Shown here: piece after piece, positions 33,296-40,791 of the stretch
How positions within the stretch are numbered: the first letter of the stretch is position 1
How the letters are laid out: every line of letters starts with the position of its first letter
Notes under the pieces: generated by a model
What the model saw: only the letters and a program-made list of their open reading frames with translations
The model's database searches: none
What the model was told of the DNA's origin: nothing
Program-made: the position numbers and the translations under genes
Assembly (NCBI GenBank): GCA_965197745.1
Contig: CBDANS010000006.1
Location: forward strand, 736,001 to 800,000
Length of the DNA: 64,000 bases
Reading direction: 5' to 3'
Source of the DNA: Opitutales bacterium
GTDB taxonomy: Bacteria > Verrucomicrobiota > Verrucomicrobiia > Opitutales > PNEW01

Positions 33296-34189
33296 ATGGC
33301 ACCGACTATTGATGCGCATATTTATATGTATCCTCCCGAGGTATTTAAAAATCCACGTCTTTGGGCAGAGGAGATGGGTGAACCTCACTGGGCGGACTGC
33401 GTGGATCCAAGTGGGAAAAAATCCCTGCAGGGCTGGGTCGATATCGATCAACTCCTGCGCGATATGGATAGTGCCGGCATCGATAAGGTCGTCATGCTCG
33501 GCTGGTACTGGCAGAAAGAGGAAACCTGTGAAGAGCAGAACCGTTGGTATCTCGAGTGGATAAAAAAACATCCCGACCGATTGATAGGTTTCGCCACCAT
33601 TCATCCCCTTGCAGGGGACCGCGCCCTGGACGAAATTCGAAATTGCGTCGAACAAGGCCTCGTCGGGTTGGGTGAATTTCATCCCCAGGCACAGGGTTTT
33701 GACTTGCGGCATCCCGACTGGTTAAAAGTGGTTGAGCTATCGATTGAACTGAATCTACCGGTCAACATTCACGTCACGGAGCCAGTGGGACACGCTTATA
33801 CTGGTCGTGTTGAGACACCGCTCGCCGATTACCCCTGGCTGGCGAAAAACTATCCCGAAGCACGGTTCATTTTCGCTCACTGGGGTGGTCTCTTACCCTT
33901 CTTCGAGTTAAATGCAAAAATAAGGAGAGTAATGAAAAATGTTTATTACGATTGCGCCGCCTCACCTTTATTGTACAACCCCGGGATTTACCGCGCCGTC
34001 GTCGATGTTGTCGGCCCTGAAAAAATTATCTGGGCGACCGATTACCCCCTCCTCATTTATCCCGGCAAAGATGATAAACCATCATTTGAAAGAGCCCTCC
34101 ATGAGATCCGATCATCCGGTTTGCGTGACGAGGAACTGGAATTGATCCTCGGAGGAAATATATCACGACTATTAAATGTTCACCGCTGA
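33296..34189 (+). CDS. Amidohydrolase_2 family metallohydrolase
   Basis: IDAHIY, GLGEFH, AHWGG, YYDCAA, WATDYP. Confidence 0.9.
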   Translation: MAPTIDAHIYMYPPEVFKNPRLWAEEMGEPHWADCVDPSGKKSLQGWVDIDQLLRDMDSAGIDKVVMLGWYWQKEETCEEQNRWYLEWIKKHPDRLIGFATIHPLAGDRALDEIRNCVEQGLVGLGEFHPQAQGFDLRHPDWLKVVELSIELNLPVNIHVTEPVGHAYTGRVETPLADYPWLAKNYPEARFIFAHWGGLLPFFELNAKIRRVMKNVYYDCAASPLLYNPGIYRAVVDVVGPEKIIWATDYPLLIYPGKDDKPSFERALHEIRSSGLRDEELELILGGNISRLLNVHR

Positions 34190-34380
34190 GGCGCTGAGAT
34201 TTTAATTTAGGGTTTTCTTTTCTCGTTTTTATAACTTTTTCTCTGCGCTCTCCAAGTCTTTGCGGTGAATAATTAACGATAACGGGCGAGGTGCCGAGAT
34301 CACTGAGAATTAAATTATAAACAATACTAAAATCAAAATTCTAAAAATATACTCCGCGTTCTCCGCGTCTCTGCGGTGAT
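34180..34380. repeat. Palindromic repeat cluster (CACCGCTGAG...CTCTGCGGTG type), copy 1
   Basis: Motifs caccgctgaggcgctgaga and ctccgcgtctctgcggtga; similar unit at 35001-35190. Confidence 0.7.
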
Positions 34381-34922: not shown

Positions 34923-35000
34923 TTTAAAGCGCTTGATAATTTATTGTGCAATCGCCACGAATAGGGCGACATCTAATTGCGGATTGTTATTAGGTATACT

Positions 35001-35190
35001 AACCGCTGAGACGCTGAGGACGCAGAGTTTTAATTTAGAGTTTTATTTTCTCGTTTATATAGCTTTTTTCTGTGTTCTCTCTGTCTCTACGTTAAAAAAA
35101 CTAACAGCAGAGGTGCAATGGTAGCTGAGTTTTATATTTTAATGTTATTTTCTGCTCTTCATCTCTGCGACCTCCGCGGCTCCGCGGTGA
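35001..35190. repeat. Palindromic repeat cluster, copy 2
   Basis: aaccgctgagacgctgaggacgcagag...ctccgcggctccgcggtga; shares spacer TTTTAATTTAGxGTTTTxTTTCTCGTTT with copy 1. Confidence 0.7.
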
Positions 35191-35272: not shown

Positions 35273-36106
35273 ATGCAAGTTGAAGAAACCAGTGGCTCCC
35301 TGCTGAGGATAAAGGCCTTGTATCCCCAATTTACGGGAAAGGAAAAGCTGGTTGCCGACCATGTCCTGACCCATGACGACATCATTCATCAGACAATCAC
35401 GCAGTTGGTTAATGAGAGTGGGGCCAGCTATGGTAGTGTCGATCGGTTTTGCAAAAAGATGGGCTATTCAGGGTTTCAGGACTTTAAAATCCATTTAGCG
35501 GAGGCCCTGGCATTACGAAAAGCGGATCGTCAGAGTGATAAGTCAGGAAACATTTTAGGTAAGACCGCAGCTCGGGCCATTGAAGATATAAAAAACACTT
35601 TGCAATTATCATCGGAAGCGAGAATCGAGGAAGCGGCGCAAGCGTTATCGCAAGCCCGTTATGTGATGATTGCTGGTTTAAGCAGTTCAGCCGGCACGGC
35701 CAGGGGGATTGAATACCGCTTGAATCGCTATGGCATTCGGTCGACTTGTATTATCGATAATCACATTCAACGCCATCAGGCAGCTACCCTGGGCGAAGGA
35801 GATGTGGTCCTTTTACTTTCGTTTTCAGGAAGCACGAAAGAAATACTGGCGACGGGTAACATCGCGAAAAAGTCAAAGGCGACAATTATCAGTCTCACCA
35901 ATTATATCGAATCTCCTGTTTCCGAAATAGCCGCCATCTCTCTTGTCACGGGGATCGAGAGTGATCCTCTGGAAGCAGAAATTCCTTCGAAGGTCGCGGT
36001 TGAATTCGTGATCACCCTGCTTTTCGACAAAATAGCGAGCCTGATGAAGAACTCACGTCAATTCCTAACCAAGACCTTCGAAGCAACCGCGGACAGACAA
36101 TTATAG
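35273..36106 (+). CDS. MurR/RpiR family transcriptional regulator
   Basis: HTH RFCKKMGYSGFQDFK; SIS domain SFSGSTKE; ATG at 35273. Confidence 0.92.
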   Translation: MQVEETSGSLLRIKALYPQFTGKEKLVADHVLTHDDIIHQTITQLVNESGASYGSVDRFCKKMGYSGFQDFKIHLAEALALRKADRQSDKSGNILGKTAARAIEDIKNTLQLSSEARIEEAAQALSQARYVMIAGLSSSAGTARGIEYRLNRYGIRSTCIIDNHIQRHQAATLGEGDVVLLLSFSGSTKEILATGNIAKKSKATIISLTNYIESPVSEIAAISLVTGIESDPLEAEIPSKVAVEFVITLLFDKIASLMKNSRQFLTKTFEATADRQL

Positions 36107-36152
36107 AAGCACCCAAATTAAGGGAATTATATACATAAGTAACCAGTGCAGC

Positions 36153-36305
36153 CTAATTTTTTGACCGCTTATTATTATATTTCCATTCATTGGGTTTTTT
36201 AGGCGACGTATTGAAAACAGCTTTAATAATGTTCTTCGGTGTATCTTGTATTTTATCAGGCATCTCCAATTTATTGTATTTTTTTGGAACTTTTTTCTTA
36301 GTCAT
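36153..36305 (-). CDS. 50-aa basic protein at the element end (below ORF-track cutoff)
   Basis: Intact ORF MTKKKVPKKYNKLEMPDKIQDTPKNIIKAVFNTSPKKPNEWKYNNKRSKN*. Confidence 0.55.
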   Translation of the reverse strand: MTKKKVPKKYNKLEMPDKIQDTPKNIIKAVFNTSPKKPNEWKYNNKRSKN

Positions 36306-36340
36306 TGGTTGTTTTTAGTGGTTGACTTGGTTACTATTTT

Positions 36341-36852
36341 ATGAAATTTAAATAACCGCCTGAAAAGTAACAGGCACATATTCGTTTTCCCCTTTGCGGT
36401 CGCATCATTATTACTGTCAGCGTGCATCAGAATACCATTTTGATACACAACGAACATTCGACGCATCGTCGGATATCGTATGCTCGGCTTTAATGAAGTT
36501 TTTCACAGAAAATAGCATTCAAATTAAGACTATTGAGAAGGATAGTGGAGTAATATATGCGGAGCATATATATAGTAATAGTCAGGGAATGGCATTCAAT
36601 AAATGGGCTGATTGTGGATACTCTTATTGGGAAACTCCTATTTCAAGCAATCTATCATTAAATGTGTTTGTTCGTAATGATCTTCAAACGGAGAAAACTG
36701 TCGTCAGCGTTAATGTGATTTTTACTCAGAAACGATTCAATAATTATTGGGAAAATTATAAAACAGTGCCCTGTAATTCTACGGGTATACTGGAGCATAC
36801 TATTATGGATCATATTTATAAATACATGGAAACTTATGAACGATCAAAATAA
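36341..36852 (+). pseudogene. Passenger lipoprotein-like gene with frameshifted N-terminus
   Basis: Body IKTIEKDSGVI...WADCG...CNSTGILE; lipobox-type FAVASLLLSAC lies in an adjacent frame at ~36380-36425. Confidence 0.55.
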
Positions 36853-37381
36853 AAATGAGAAGAAAACCAGATCAATAGATGATATTAGAAAAGCATTAAA
36901 AATTGAAAATTACTCGTTTGATCTTCTAGAAATATCCTTTCAAAAAATTTCTGATAATTCGGATTATCATATTATAAGGATTAAAGCAAGATGGGCAGAA
37001 TCTGATCTTGATCCTGGAGAACTCTCTTACATATGTCATCGTAATATACTACATCAAGCATGGGAATTTTTAACAGCACTTCTTAAGAACGAAAAGGCTT
37101 CAAACAATTCTCCTTATTGCGAAAATGATTTTTGTATCTTTGAAACCAAAAAAGTAACTGGCGTGCGAAATTTATTTCCGTGTGCAAATCAGAAAGGGTC
37201 TCCTTACCCAAAAATATCCTGCTACCGACATCCGGACAAAAGTTCTTTTTACGTTTTGCTGATTGATTTATTACCGTTTTCATCATCTCACTCTGAATCG
37301 GTACCCCACACTTTCCAAATTTCGCCTGCGATGCTTGATCAAGTTCATGAACTGCTATCACAGCATCTTCAATTAAAGTAA
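36836..37381 (+). CDS. Passenger hypothetical protein, paralog of 38463-38978
   Basis: SFDLLEISF/SFYLNEISF, ISCYRHPDKSSF/IKCFQYDDGKSSF, LSQHLQL/LSIHLHL. Confidence 0.65.
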   Translation: MNDQNKNEKKTRSIDDIRKALKIENYSFDLLEISFQKISDNSDYHIIRIKARWAESDLDPGELSYICHRNILHQAWEFLTALLKNEKASNNSPYCENDFCIFETKKVTGVRNLFPCANQKGSPYPKISCYRHPDKSSFYVLLIDLLPFSSSHSESVPHTFQISPAMLDQVHELLSQHLQLK

Positions 37382-37454
37382 AAAATTCAGGTTCTTGATC
37401 GGGCAGATCAGATTGTGGAGATTCTTGAGAAGAAATCTCTTTAATTTTAGTCAT
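37083..37454 (-). CDS. Candidate antisense-overlapping gene coupled to the transposase stop
   Basis: ATGA overlap with the transposase stop; similar to antisense ORF 38749-39030. Confidence 0.4.
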   Translation of the reverse strand: MTKIKEISSQESPQSDLPDQEPEFFTLIEDAVIAVHELDQASQAKFGKCGVPIQSEMMKTVINQSAKRKKNFCPDVGSRIFLGKETLSDLHTEINFARQLLFWFQRYKNHFRNKENCLKPFRS

Positions 37455-38373
37455 TTTATTAATTCCTTATAAGTCAGCGTTTTGTTGCACATACCCCTGA
37501 CCATCGCTGACATCTGATCAATTGTATCAAACGACCTGTTATTATGGCGGCCTGAAAATTCTTGCACGTAGCGGTTTAGATGCTTAGGACTCATACGGTG
37601 ATAGGATGCCGAAGAATCCACGCTTGAGCATAGACCAGAATGATTCGATGCCATTGGTGTAAGCCTGTCCCCTGACATATTCACCTAAACTGTTTAACTG
37701 CTTCTGTATTCAATCCTTCATAAGCCCTGTTATCGTCAGAATAGATTTTTACTTTTCCATCAACTTTATCTAAAACAAATTTTTGCAGAGTTTCTTTATC
37801 AGTTGAATGTACCACAGCCGCAGTTACTTGTTTGGATGGCCTATCCTTAATTCCAACAACGGCGGATTTACCTACTACGCCACGTCCTGCATGTTGTTTT
37901 TTGTCTGAATGCTTATTTTTCTCAAGTCCTCCGAAAAATGTCTCATCAATTTCAACTGGACCAGCAAATTCCCTTTCTTGATTTTCCCAAGATTCACGTA
38001 GCCTGTGTGCCAAATGCCAAGCTGTTTTCTGTGTAATATCAAGGTCTCTATGCAACTTCATGCTAGATGTTCCTTTAATGCTTGTAGACATAATATATGA
38101 AGCCAATACCCATACTTGATAGCTCAATTTTGAGGACTGCATGCAAGTTCCTGTTCTAACGGAAAAAAACTTCCTGCATTTGCGGCAACGAAATGACATT
38201 GTCGGATGCTTCACATTCTTTTGAACGTGTTCGCTGTGGCAATGTGGGCAACTTACCTTTTTACCCCATCGTTCTTTAATAAGCCATTCCTTCGCTTTCT
38301 TATCGTCAGGGAACAGCTTCATAACTTTGATTAAGGACAATCCCTTTCTATAGTATTTTCCAGGTGCTTTCAT
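37451..38373 (-). pseudogene. IS1595-family DDE transposase with two frameshifts
   Basis: Zn ribbon CPHC/CRKC, VEIDETFFGG, YSDD; TNGIESFWSMLKRG and YHRMSPKHLNRYVQEF lie in different frames (~37690, ~37610). Confidence 0.9.
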
Positions 38374-38462
38374 ATTAATATGTTATTGCATATTAAGTAA
38401 TTAGTCAAGACAATTGGTTACTTTTTTTCACTTTTTTATAACAATAAACGAAAGGATAGACC

Positions 38463-38978
38463 ATGGATAATGACGAATCAAAAAATGAAATCAAACTACC
38501 AGAAAACATCTTAAATCTAATAGGTGATGACACATTCTCTTTTTATCTGAACGAAATATCCTTTAAACAACATGATGAATTTCCCAATTTGCACATTCTA
38601 AACATCAAAACAAAACCCATAAGGACTAATGTTGATATTCCAAACCATTGTTACGTAGTTGATCTTAAAAGACTTTATCAATTTTGGCTGGAGATAACCG
38701 ATCGTCTTTATAAACAGGATTCAAAGCATGCTCTCTACGCTGACGTAATCAAAACAATAAGTGATGCACGAAGTTTACCGCTAGCACCAAACGTTGGCCT
38801 TTGTCCTGCCCATGAAATAAAGTGCTTTCAATATGATGATGGGAAATCCTCGTTCCTCCTTGTGTTAACACTTGGAGCATTTGGTCCCATGAAGGAGAAA
38901 CATCTTTTCCGAACATCAAAGCTTCAGCTTCCTGAAGTTTGGAAATCGCTATCAATACATCTTCACTTAAACGTATAA
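38463..38978 (+). CDS. Passenger hypothetical protein, paralog of 36836-37381
   Basis: AAAGGA RBS; sequence similarity to the 36836 ORF. Confidence 0.7.
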   Translation: MDNDESKNEIKLPENILNLIGDDTFSFYLNEISFKQHDEFPNLHILNIKTKPIRTNVDIPNHCYVVDLKRLYQFWLEITDRLYKQDSKHALYADVIKTISDARSLPLAPNVGLCPAHEIKCFQYDDGKSSFLLVLTLGAFGPMKEKHLFRTSKLQLPEVWKSLSIHLHLNV

Positions 38979-39030
38979 AATTGTTCGCTTCTGAAATACT
39001 TTCTTTTCTCTCTATTTTTTGGTTACTCAT
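38749..39030 (-). CDS. Candidate antisense-overlapping gene starting inside the right IR
   Basis: MSNQKIERK...EDVLIAISKLQEA...FGK...NFVHHLLF resembles 37083-37454. Confidence 0.3.
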   Translation of the reverse strand: MSNQKIERKESISEANNFIRLSEDVLIAISKLQEAEALMFGKDVSPSWDQMLQVLTQGGTRISHHHIESTLFHGQDKGQRLVLAVNFVHHLLF

Positions 39031-39054
39031 GTATATAATTCCCCAAATTAAAGA

Positions 39055-40791
39055 ATGCTCCATAAAACAAAACAAGGTAGCGGCGCTCGCACATACAGTG
39101 AGTTATCACCATTAGATCCGGACATTGAAATTGCACGCAGGGCAAGTCTGGATCCAATCGCTGATGTAGCGCGCCATTCGGGATTAGAACCGAATGAAGT
39201 CGACCCTTATGGCTCGACCAAAGCAAAAATAAATGATCAGGCCTTTAAGCGATTGGATAAGCACCCCGAGGGAAAATTAATTTTAGTCACAGCAATGACA
39301 CCCACACCGGCGGGTGAAGGTAAAACGGTAACGAGCATTGGCCTGGCCCAAGCTTTGGGCAAAATGAAACGCCCTCATATGCTGGCTTTACGTGAGCCAT
39401 CGCTGGGGCCCACATTTGGCCTGAAAGGAGGCGCAGCGGGTGGTGGATATGCCCAGGTTCTACCGATGGAAGATATCAACCTGCATTTTACGGGAGACAT
39501 GCACGCCGTAACAACCGCCCACAATTTGCTGGCCGCGGTTGTCGATAACCATGTATTCCATGGTAATAAGCTGGGGATCGATCCCCAAAAAATAGTATGG
39601 CGCCGCGTCATAGATTTATGCGACCGCCAGTTAAGGCAGTGTGATATCGGACTGGGGTCGAAATTTGACGGCTTTCCCCACCGCTCAGGCTTTGATATTA
39701 CGGCATCCTCAGAGATCATGGCTATCCTTTCACTGACGAAGGACCTCCATGATCTAAAAGACCGGCTTGAACGAATTGTTGTCGCTTACAACCAGGATGA
39801 TGAACCCCTATTTGCATCCCAATTGAACGTCGTGGGGGCGATGATGGTATTACTCAAAGACGCGATAAGCCCGAATCTAGTCCAGACAATTGAAAATACT
39901 CCGGCTATTATTCACTGTGGACCTTTTGGCAACATCGCCCACGGCTGTAACAGTGTCCGGGCCACACAGATTGCTTTAAAACTGACTGATTACGTTGTGA
40001 CGGAAGCGGGATTTGCCGCTGATTTAGGTGCTGAAAAATTTATTGATATCAAATGCCGACTGGCCGGGATAAAACCTGATGTTGCCGTCCTCGTGACAAC
40101 TTGCCGGGCGCTTAAAATGCATGGCGGTGTGCCGAGGGAAGAGATCGACAAAAAGAACCTTGAGGCCCTCGAAACAGGCTTCGCTAATTTGCGTATTCAC
40201 ATTGAAAACCTAAAAAAATTTCATCTTCCCACTGTTGTTGCGGTCAACCGATTTCTCAGTGACAGCCCGGCTGAACTGGACCTCGTATTTAAATTTTGTA
40301 AGGAGCAGGATACCCCCGCGGCCCTATCGGAAGTAGCTGCGTTCGGTGGCGATGGTGGTTTAGAATTAGCGGGTGAAGTTCTGTCGATAATCGAAAAGAA
40401 CGACAAAACGGATTCCCGCTTACACTATCTGTATGATGTTGATTTGCCCATTAAAGAGAAAATTGAAATTATTGCGCGGGAGATATACCGAGCTGATGGA
40501 GTCGATTATCACGAATTAGCTGAGGAGAATATTAATAGGCTGGAGCGACACGGTCTGAATAATTTGCCGGTCTGCATGGCGAAAACCCAGTTCTCGATAT
40601 CCGACAACCCAAAAAAGCTGGGCGCTCCCACGAATTGGCGATTAACGGTTCGTGAAGTCAAGATCAGCAACGGTGCCGGGTACCTGGTAGCTGTTACGGG
40701 GAAAATGCTGCTTATGCCGGGAATGCCCAAACAAGCGGCCATTGAAAAAATTGGCATCGATGATGACGGCAACAGCTATGGGCTGTCATAG
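39055..40791 (+). CDS. fhs: Formate--tetrahydrofolate ligase
   Basis: TPTPAGEGKT, GAAGGGYAQV, NLHFTGD, GPFGNIAHGCNS, EAGFAADLGAEKF. Confidence 0.97.
   Translation: MLHKTKQGSGARTYSELSPLDPDIEIARRASLDPIADVARHSGLEPNEVDPYGSTKAKINDQAFKRLDKHPEGKLILVTAMTPTPAGEGKTVTSIGLAQALGKMKRPHMLALREPSLGPTFGLKGGAAGGGYAQVLPMEDINLHFTGDMHAVTTAHNLLAAVVDNHVFHGNKLGIDPQKIVWRRVIDLCDRQLRQCDIGLGSKFDGFPHRSGFDITASSEIMAILSLTKDLHDLKDRLERIVVAYNQDDEPLFASQLNVVGAMMVLLKDAISPNLVQTIENTPAIIHCGPFGNIAHGCNSVRATQIALKLTDYVVTEAGFAADLGAEKFIDIKCRLAGIKPDVAVLVTTCRALKMHGGVPREEIDKKNLEALETGFANLRIHIENLKKFHLPTVVAVNRFLSDSPAELDLVFKFCKEQDTPAALSEVAAFGGDGGLELAGEVLSIIEKNDKTDSRLHYLYDVDLPIKEKIEIIAREIYRADGVDYHELAEENINRLERHGLNNLPVCMAKTQFSISDNPKKLGAPTNWRLTVREVKISNGAGYLVAVTGKMLLMPGMPKQAAIEKIGIDDDGNSYGLS

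Follow-up and report, generated by a model that had tools for sequence, protein, structure and literature searches.

An insertion sequence (IS) of the IS1595 family, located in a 64,000-nucleotide stretch of the genome of an Opitutales bacterium (GenBank assembly GCA_965197745.1, contig CBDANS010000006.1, positions 736,001 to 800,000 of the forward strand; hereafter the window, whose own numbering we use), carries two diverged copies of a gene cassette in which a plus-strand gene is overlapped by a convergent open reading frame (ORF) on the minus strand. Comparison of these copies with others in the genome and with external homologs suggests that the cassette is tied to IS1595-type elements and that both strands of the same about 230–360 bp probably encode protein (dual coding), a reading that we favour without regarding it as settled.

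Long protein-coding genes on both strands of one bacterial locus are rare and disputed, and most of the proposed cases, to our knowledge, concern a single species and are supported by expression data. In the present case, evidence can be drawn from a comparison of four paralogs (about 26–32% protein identity) and external homologs, with the frames open, and one repeat unit of the plus-strand gene, unit I, provides a control. The cassette pair is small, portable and easily tested. If confirmed, it would represent a new type of accessory module in elements of IS1595 type, one whose start codon is located within the terminal repeat. It also serves as a warning for annotation, because pipelines choose the plus-strand ORF at some loci and the minus-strand ORF at others.

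Two cassettes in the window and further copies in the genome

The cassettes of the window, A/a and B/b, with capital letters for the plus-strand genes, consist of the following features.

36836–37381, plus strand: A, a gene of 181 amino acids (aa) comprising two homologous units, each with a helix, three strands and a helix; its model is PC4/PUR/Whirly-like
37083–37454, minus strand: a, a 123-aa ORF antisense to unit II of A, with a 299-nt overlap
38463–38978, plus strand: B, a 171-aa paralog of A
38749–39030, minus strand: b, a 93-aa ORF (from ATG) antisense to unit II of B, with a 230-nt overlap; a truncated copy

A sequence-only reading of this DNA had described two diverged plus-strand paralogs, each overlapped by a convergent minus-strand ORF, and had noticed that the two minus-strand ORFs resemble each other. 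The coordinates and BLASTP comparisons agree with this description, with 27% identity over 179 aa between A and B (E 1e-14) and 28% over 99 aa between a and b (E 1e-9). The relative frame is identical in both pairs, minus-strand codon positions 1/2/3 facing plus-strand positions 1/3/2, and the N-terminal 24 aa of a fall outside A. The two start sites highlighted in that reading were likewise found: the ATG of a (37454–37452) overlaps the TGA (37453–37451) of the C-terminal transposase piece in an ATGA arrangement, and the ATG of b (39030–39028) lies inside the right terminal inverted repeat (IRR), where the single mismatch between the repeats makes an ATG as opposed to the ATA of the left repeat (IRL). 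The ORF b ends at a TGA that aligns with a Trp common to 6 other family members in the alignment, and similarity goes on past this TGA, which is the appearance expected of a coding frame recently interrupted by a nonsense mutation. The frame of b also remains open past the IS, with an ATG at 39060 and a TTG at 39075, and 39055–39075 overlaps the start of a formate-tetrahydrofolate ligase gene on the opposite strand; since the frame reaches flanking DNA, read-in translation is possible in principle.

A profile of the plus-strand family, built on A, on B and on P0002, a metagenome protein with 67% identity to A, matched four loci in the same genome (A, B, C on contig 6, and D on contig 7) and none in 60 relatives. 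The 172-aa C overlaps with the 116-aa c, d (125 aa) spans the whole of D (118 aa), and the relative frame is the same as in A/a and B/b. The four full copies share 26–32% identity as proteins and 56–70% as DNA. D/d occupies the left end of a 1385-bp IS1595-type element that lacks a transposase and is bounded by 31-nt inverted repeats, and the ATG of d lies inside the repeat, as that of b does in IRR. A location of C/c at an IS end was ruled out, as its locus (L007) contained no repeat-like site at up to 3 mismatches. At positions 2101–2328 of this locus, a 57-aa very basic ORF (…KTVPVKRHKRSTPKKTGKKC) adjoins C/c between 14-nt inverted repeats (13/14 complementary). A fifth copy (L013 1311–1625, G000:C7, ~1061850–1062160) is a fragment comprising the C-terminal part of the plus-strand gene and a 57-aa piece of the minus-strand ORF; it is cut by an IS3-type element and abuts an IS3-family orfA.

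Among external homologs, P0002 is a complete ORF, as are the minus-family proteins P0007 (118 aa), P0008 (123 aa), P0010 (123 aa) and P0009 (118 aa), which were recovered from other assemblies by profile searches, have the same termini and are 48–59% identical to c or d. Other annotation pipelines called the plus-strand ORF for A, B, C and P0002 and the minus-strand ORF for c, d and P0007–P0010, and the two were never both reported within one pipeline call set.

Evidence for and against coding in the minus-strand frame

If only the plus-strand gene were real, the minus-strand ORF would be an accidental open frame inherited from a common ancestor, and its similarity among copies a by-product of plus-strand conservation. 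We consider this explanation improbable, and the tests below bear on it directly. The sequence-only reading had singled out stops in one strand's frame among homologs as the observation that would speak for a by-product; none was found in either frame, both being open in 4/4 full genome copies, and the external homologs are complete ORFs in the one frame seen of each.

We kept each plus-strand protein and permuted its synonymous codons (20000 permutations each). The probability of an antisense run at least as long as the one observed was 0.020 for A, 0.021 for B, 0.0047 for C and 0.0005 for D; C and D were found blind to the antisense frame, and therefore represent unbiased tests. The number of stops in the overlap, for frames +0, +1, +2, -0, -1 and -2, was 1, 3, 6, 9, 9 and 0 in A; 1, 6, 5, 7, 3 and 0 in B; 1, 9, 8, 8, 9 and 0 in C; and 1, 13, 4, 10, 13 and 0 in D. 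The four non-coding frames accordingly contain 3–13 stops each, as compared with 0 in the frame of the minus-strand ORF. An internal control is provided by the same -2 frame along the rest of the plus-strand gene: there were 0 stops opposite unit II (98, 75 and 96 codons in A, B and C, respectively), as against 4, 6 and 8 stops in the remaining 83, 96 and 76 codons. Opposite unit I of A there is a faint a-like match with 4 stops, and because the antisense frame has decayed there, the unit I half acts as a built-in control.

Codon usage in the overlap pointed in the same direction. The log-odds of the minus-strand frame (coding versus frame -2 of coding) were +0.108, +0.108, +0.080 and +0.042, to be read against references of 0.238 (sd 0.076) for true genes, -0.133 (sd 0.086) for antisense windows and 0.10 for the transposase piece; they are coding-like, and better than those of the plus-strand frame. 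In simulations of drift without selection on the minus-strand frame, the frame was stop-free at the observed divergence in 1–3.5% of runs for c and in 0.3–0.7% for d. Replacements in the external minus-strand homologs were more conservative (mean BLOSUM62 at mismatches -0.26, -0.09 and -0.38) than under the drift null (-0.6 to -1.07), with P <=0.027 in 8/9 settings of the conservative-replacement test and 0.10 in the other one. Similarity of the antisense frame among paralogs, 60–81, exceeded the synonymous-permutation null of 23–28 (sd 4–6) in 4/6 pairs. Additionally, the N-terminal motif (M)TKIKEISSQE lies outside the plus-strand ORF in a and c, and the DNA encoding this motif is 85–86% identical among a, c and d. 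Identity by codon position between paralogs was uninformative, because the sequences are saturated and AT-biased. Together, the permutation, simulation and codon-usage tests reject the by-product explanation for the minus-strand ORF and show, at the level of sequence evolution, that this frame evolves like a protein of about 95–125 aa, predicted to be helical.

Several observations nonetheless count against dual coding, and most of those collected here would fit an accidental minus-strand ORF. Of the two proteins, the plus-strand one folds with confidence and the minus-strand one does not: the AlphaFold2 model of a (6 sequences) is poor, with pLDDT 53.2 and pTM 0.28. Among 919 crude ORF-genes of this genome (150–250 aa), 10% have an antisense run of at least 75 codons in this frame and 3.7% one of at least 96, so single antisense ORFs of such length, seen in 4–10% of genes of similar size, are not rare, and the case therefore rests on their repetition across copies; the copies, in turn, share ancestry and are therefore not fully independent. 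Similarity between paralogs is sizeable off frame, with scores of 22–65 in non-coding frames compared with 60–81 in that of the minus-strand ORF. In the A–C pair, one off-frame score (65) is above that of the minus-strand frame (60), and the pairs B–C and B–D show no similarity in any frame. Decay is visible in b, truncated by its nonsense codon at the conserved Trp. In a near-identical X4 contig (depth 3.6), an extra A behind 37379 shifts the frame of a after about residue 25, which may be an error. The conserved 5' stretch of the minus-strand ORF could be kept as IS-end DNA and not as codons. Lastly, the external homologs were compared as proteins from a called-gene database, from which broken copies would escape notice. 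Set against these points are the open frame in each of the four copies, the contrast between units II and I, the coding-like codon usage and the full-length external homologs, whose conservative replacements are unlikely to arise by drift.

The plus-strand protein and selection in the overlap

The plus-strand frame was examined in the reciprocal manner. Given the minus-strand protein, the probability that the plus-strand frame is open over the overlap was 0.002 for a, 0.026 for b, 0.0007 for c and 0.0033 for d, values that reject chance openness for the plus-strand ORF as far as sequence statistics can tell.

AlphaFold2 modelled A (5 sequences) with pLDDT 70.4 and pTM 0.67 as two strand-strand-strand-helix halves separated by a disordered linker at residues 90–123. 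The second half lies in the overlap, with block-mean pLDDT of 66–91 over residues 121–180. The first structural match was Pur-alpha, with Foldseek E 0.017 and probability 0.97 and, in an exhaustive aligner, Z 8.0 over 125 residues, a value that the aligner's own note places in a range also reached by unrelated models. Next came MRP1/2 (MRP Z 5.0) and Whirly proteins (Z 4.5–4.6). No Pfam or NCBIfam family was found for A, B, C, D or P0002 at E 0.05–0.1 or better, and by sequence these proteins fall outside the PUR, Whirly and PC4 families. From the models, the plus-strand protein is presumably a PC4/PUR/Whirly-like repeat protein that binds single-stranded nucleic acid. Each half of A (E 3e-7 and 1e-4) and each half of C is matched by D, indicating that A, B and C consist of two homologous units and D of one; when the halves of A, B or C were compared with each other, BLASTP detected no similarity, and the internal repeat emerges through D only. 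Opposite the disordered linker of A, on the antisense strand, lies the conserved C-terminal helix of a, an arrangement only suggestive, in these models, of the division of labour expected of overlapping genes. The predicted complex of A with a obtained a score of 0.01 and a mark of 0.32.

These data also bear on a converse explanation, in which only the minus-strand ORF is selected in the overlap, and the plus-strand gene is real in its first repeat unit only, or is fading, its second half being open by chance and recent ancestry. Three further results that are unfavourable to dual coding belong here. Replacements between A and P0002 in the overlap are radical (mean BLOSUM62 -0.92), like a null with selection on the minus-strand frame alone (P 0.53–0.86); an open plus-strand frame is unsurprising at the A/P0002 divergence (P 0.06–0.14); and the codon log-odds of the plus-strand frame in the overlap are near zero or negative (-0.039, -0.044, -0.067 and +0.020), favouring the minus-strand frame. 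A single-unit plus-strand protein does exist (D), and gene callers picked the minus-strand ORF at D/d and at 4/4 external minus-family loci. However, the plus-strand frame is open over the overlap in 4/4 copies with the low probabilities given above, the model, with block-mean pLDDT of 66–91 for unit II, packs units I and II together as a single PC4-like domain, unit II of A and unit II of C both resemble D, and plus-strand similarity in the overlap equals or exceeds minus-strand similarity in 5/6 pairs, the exception being A–B (76 versus 81). We regard this explanation as quite improbable. The proposal of the sequence-only reading that both strands are under coding selection is supported for the minus-strand frame, by permutation, codon usage, drift and replacements, and for the openness of the plus-strand frame, but not for the replacement pattern or codon usage of the plus strand in the overlap.

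The IS1595-family element, its state and its relatives

The element that carries A/a and B/b, and the remaining features within it, are listed below.

36122–39043: IS1595-family element, 2922 bp, delimited by terminal repeats and target duplication
36114–36121, no strand: left copy of the 8-bp target-site duplication, CAAATTAA; the same 8 bases at 39044–39051
39044–39051, no strand: right copy of the 8-bp target-site duplication, CAAATTAA
36122–36145, plus strand: left terminal inverted repeat IRL, GGGAATTATATACATAAGTAACCA; 23/24 bases complementary to IRR, with ATA where IRR has ATG
39020–39043, minus strand: right terminal inverted repeat IRR, GGGAATTATATACATGAGTAACCA on the minus strand; 24 nt, 1 mismatch versus IRL, contains the ATG of b
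37451–38373, minus strand: IS1595-family transposase pseudogene with Zn-ribbon and DDE domain; frameshifts near 37684 and near 37606
38380–38408, minus strand: match to a sigma-70-like promoter, by consensus only, preceding the transposase within the 90 bp that separate the divergent transposase and B genes
38440–38454, plus strand: leader motif AACAATAAACGAAAG, 8 nt upstream of the ATG of B; 4 genome occurrences, all inside IS1595-type elements of this group
36153–36305, minus strand: 50-aa basic, lysine-rich ORF (MTKKKVPKK...) reading towards IRL; no family match
36342–36852, plus strand: lipoprotein-like passenger gene, broken; three-frame translation, no family match

Membership in the IS1595 family is indicated by an ISXO2-like DDE domain with an N-terminal zinc ribbon, and by terminal inverted repeats with an 8-bp target duplication. 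Duplications of 8 bp are typical for this family in ISfinder. The 230-aa piece of the transposase matched PF12762 (ISXO2-like DDE, E 5.9e-17) and PF12760 (zinc ribbon, E 2.6e-8) in Pfam, and the 77-aa piece matched profile positions 130–153 of PF12762. The best plasmid relatives of the transposase are annotated as IS1595 family, at <=41% identity. In its own genome the element occurs once, along with 24 PF12762 matches and several elements with similar termini.

Three-frame translation spread the transposase over three frames, that is, with two frameshifts, so this is not an autonomous element with an intact transposase. Contigs of runs X5 and X6 show the same two indel sites and span 37310–37845 and 37456–38632 gap-free, ruling out an assembly error behind the frameshifts of the window version. 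Among the 9 runs that contain this stretch, none was listed as RNA. The near-identical X4 contig differs from the window by only two one-base indels, in short homopolymers at 37379 and 37606, one of which shifts a and the other of which removes one of the two transposase frameshifts; they are either strain variation or errors of a low-depth contig. X4 contigs also cover 36867–37414 at about 86–88% identity. Other X4 contigs join IRL (36145) straight to the transposase stop (37451), and 37445 to 39004, indicating that relatives without segment 36146–37450 exist; the edge of this segment is the start codon of a. The gene order on the minus strand is b, transposase, a. With its two transposase frameshifts, broken lipoprotein gene and nonsense codon in b, the element in the window is dead, and its cassette copies may therefore no longer act.

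This raises the explanation that neither overlapping ORF acts now, the cassettes being relics in dead or transposase-less elements and the frames leftovers. Besides the decay of the window element, such a view would accommodate D/d in an element without transposase, C/c without a nearby inverted repeat, the fragmentary fifth copy, itself a sign of decay, and the restriction of the family to very few genomes. The narrow distribution also weakens the case for dual coding, as the family is tiny, comprising one genome and 5 external proteins. A search of 1.84 billion representatives returned nothing beyond A, B and C, no family member was present in 400 genomes of the class or 400 of the order, and 399/400 other genomes of the phylum were without a match; the single phylum match (E 8.4e-4) lies inside a 1117-aa frame and was taken as weak and due to chance. 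No DNA relative of the cassette was found in genome, metagenome or viral contigs, and a DNA motif scan of viral contigs, tblastn of A against plasmids and ESM Atlas searches with A and P0009 gave no match or, for ESM Atlas, no usable one. The four copies are, however, strongly diverged, at the 26–32% protein and 56–70% DNA identity given above, whereas drift gives 3–4.6 stops at much smaller divergence; they have therefore been separated far longer than an unselected frame stays open. Moreover, decay of the IS copy in the window says nothing on the function of the family in the past or elsewhere, and we judge it very unlikely that the cassettes are mere relics.

Of the four genome occurrences of the leader motif AACAAYAAACGAAAG, two precede B and D, a third precedes a 100-aa ORF that accompanies D in its element, and the last precedes a two-codon remnant, 'MN', in a sister element. 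In the D element, the motif present before B is included in a 37-nt direct repeat (TTTCGTTT.TTGTT.AT.ATTAAATAGTTAAA; L008 1780–1816 and 2198–2232) that lies upstream of D and of the 100-aa ORF, which encodes a putative membrane protein. The sister element with the remnant, a 2.3-kb element with like termini (L015, G000:C7:970700–973500), contains the nearest relative of the transposase (55%, tblastx), also broken, and other passengers (194 aa and 103 aa); its 'MN', followed by a stop, looks like what is left of a B-like gene. A further sister of IS1595 type (L016, G000:C7:351000–355300; element at ~C7:351209–355069) has similar termini (GGGAATTATATA...) and an intact 310-aa transposase. Its passenger is an 867-aa methyltransferase-like ORF with an NPPF motif, typical of N6-adenine methyltransferases, and may be a mobile restriction-modification or defence gene.

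The promoter scan gave 3 matches in the region, fewer than the 12.0 of shuffled sequences, and none for the minus-strand ORFs; Rfam contained no family for 35900–39300. The 50-aa ORF begins with MTKKK, resembling the MTKIK of a, and a terminator-like hairpin is located at 36376–36357. An X4 contig joins 36356 to 37450, so that the stretch with this ORF can directly follow the transposase in relatives. The lipoprotein-like gene, spread over three frames, has an MKFK start, a signal peptide with the lipobox LLLSAC and a 152-aa body, and its final codons overlap the ATG of A (ATGA). Outside the IS, a 54-nt intergenic repeat occurs three times (34170–34223, 34998–35051 and 35100–35153; 61–70% alike) upstream of an RpiR-like gene.

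A possible role in control of the element

The sequence-only reading had suggested a toxin-antitoxin, defence or transposition-control module. Pfam, NCBIfam, PADLOC and PHROGs yielded only sub-threshold noise for the cassette proteins and no toxin, antitoxin or defence signature; with PADLOC, none of 10 proteins scored below E 0.017 and none of the matches was meaningful. The minus-strand protein had no zinc-finger or helix-turn-helix match, and for P0007 a sub-threshold match to TIGR02436 ('four helix bundle protein', E 0.018) is no more than a weak lead. The cassette does not have the organisation of a type II toxin-antitoxin system, as its genes are convergent and overlapping, not co-directional, and without a toxin or antitoxin family in Pfam, NCBIfam or PADLOC. 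Nor does it resemble a type I system beyond the convergent 3' overlap, the sole common trait, since its products are 93–181 aa long and read as hydrophilic and no Rfam family was found. What is left of that suggestion is the tie to IS ends and to the transposase gene, which leans to an IS-related role.

The only purine-rich stretch before the ATG of b and d is the GGGG tip of the repeat and, because this tip is at the repeat end, a transcript carrying it must begin outside the element. Expression of the minus-strand ORF might depend on transcripts reading into the element over the IS end or running on from the transposase gene, a could be coupled to the transposase stop, and the plus-strand genes would use their own leader motif. 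The convergent mRNAs, complementary over 230–357 nt of their 3' parts, might each damp the other, and the pair could conceivably link the amount of the nucleic-acid-binding protein to transcription of the transposase or to read-in. The PC4-like protein would then act on the nucleic acid of the element, and the cassette might constitute an IS-borne control or maintenance module. We rate such a control role well below dual coding itself.

These elements can be assembled into a joint reading, which we think rather doubtful as a whole. An old mobile dual-coding unit of about 360 bp, with a single PC4-like repeat encoded by one strand and a four-helix protein by its complement, the arrangement seen in D/d, would have undergone a later tandem duplication of the whole unit, leaving the decayed a-like remnant opposite unit I of A. 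Owing to a start built into the inverted repeat, the minus-strand protein would appear only if transcripts run in over the IS end or out of the transposase gene, and its mRNA would silence the plus-strand gene. If true, this would make the cassette a strand switch or addiction device of a new, IS-borne type, and place it among the strongest comparative examples of long antisense genes with a function in bacteria.

Comparison with known systems

Elements of the IS1595 family with passenger genes are known, and were reportedly described by Siguier, Gagnevin and Chandler in 2009 as 'transporter IS'. The element in the window resembles them in its Zn-ribbon and ISXO2-like DDE domains, short inverted repeats, 8-bp duplication and non-transposase genes, and in having sisters in the same genome that carry other cargo, such as the 867-aa methyltransferase-like gene. 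Unlike in those elements, the cargo here is an orphan two-strand cassette whose minus-strand ORF starts inside the terminal repeat, and which recurs at IS ends, once without a transposase, while the transposase of the window is broken.

The nearest precedent known to us for coding opposite an IS gene is IS5, with ins5B and ins5C on the strand opposite the transposase. InsA of IS1 and OrfA of IS3 are small upstream IS regulators, and RNA-OUT of IS10 is an antisense RNA. The cassettes share with these systems ORFs or RNAs antisense to IS genes and small proteins that start by the IS end in the direction of the transposase (b, transposase and a are all on the minus strand). They differ in that the antisense partner is a passenger gene and not the transposase, and in the minus-strand protein, which is without a zinc-finger or helix-turn-helix match. 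A search of the papers available to us for insertion sequences with overlapping ORFs on opposite strands found no related case, and we know of no earlier description of a both-strand cassette that persists across diverged paralogs and is linked to IS ends.

Convergent pairs with 3' overlaps that regulate by antisense pairing include the type I toxin-antitoxin pair txpA/ratA and the 'excludons' of Listeria. As in these, the convergent transcripts of the cassettes would be complementary over 230–357 nt, and one of them could be both mRNA and antisense RNA; unlike in these, there is no small hydrophobic toxin and both partners are protein-sized ORFs.

With respect to the plus-strand protein, PC4-like domains are described, in the passages cited, as formed by one chain with two units or by a dimer of single units, in a group that includes Pur-alpha, Whirly/p24, MRP1/MRP2 and bacterial YdbC/SP_0782 (PMC7549692). 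The predicted order of strands, helix, linker, strands and helix and the best structural match to Pur-alpha agree with this group, and the two-unit (A, B and C) and one-unit (D) forms may be compared with its intramolecular and dimeric types, as outlined in that source (PMC7549692), D being predicted to form a dimer. The models differ in having three strands per unit, not four, and the proteins in having no Pfam or NCBIfam match.

Long antisense overlapping genes have been reported in E. coli O157:H7 and Pseudomonas aeruginosa (PMC9927249, PMC5960689, PMC8850804; review PMC7457138). The reported support comes from RNA-seq or ribosome profiling (PMC9927249, PMC5960689) or from translation together with purifying selection (PMC8850804), and the Pseudomonas antisense pair is there termed evolutionarily novel. 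The cassettes are like them in having a long ORF antisense to a protein-coding gene and indirect signs of selection. In contrast to those genes, as far as these sources describe them, the cassettes are known from sequence alone, but their frames have been kept in four paralogs and in external homologs, and they reside on a mobile element.

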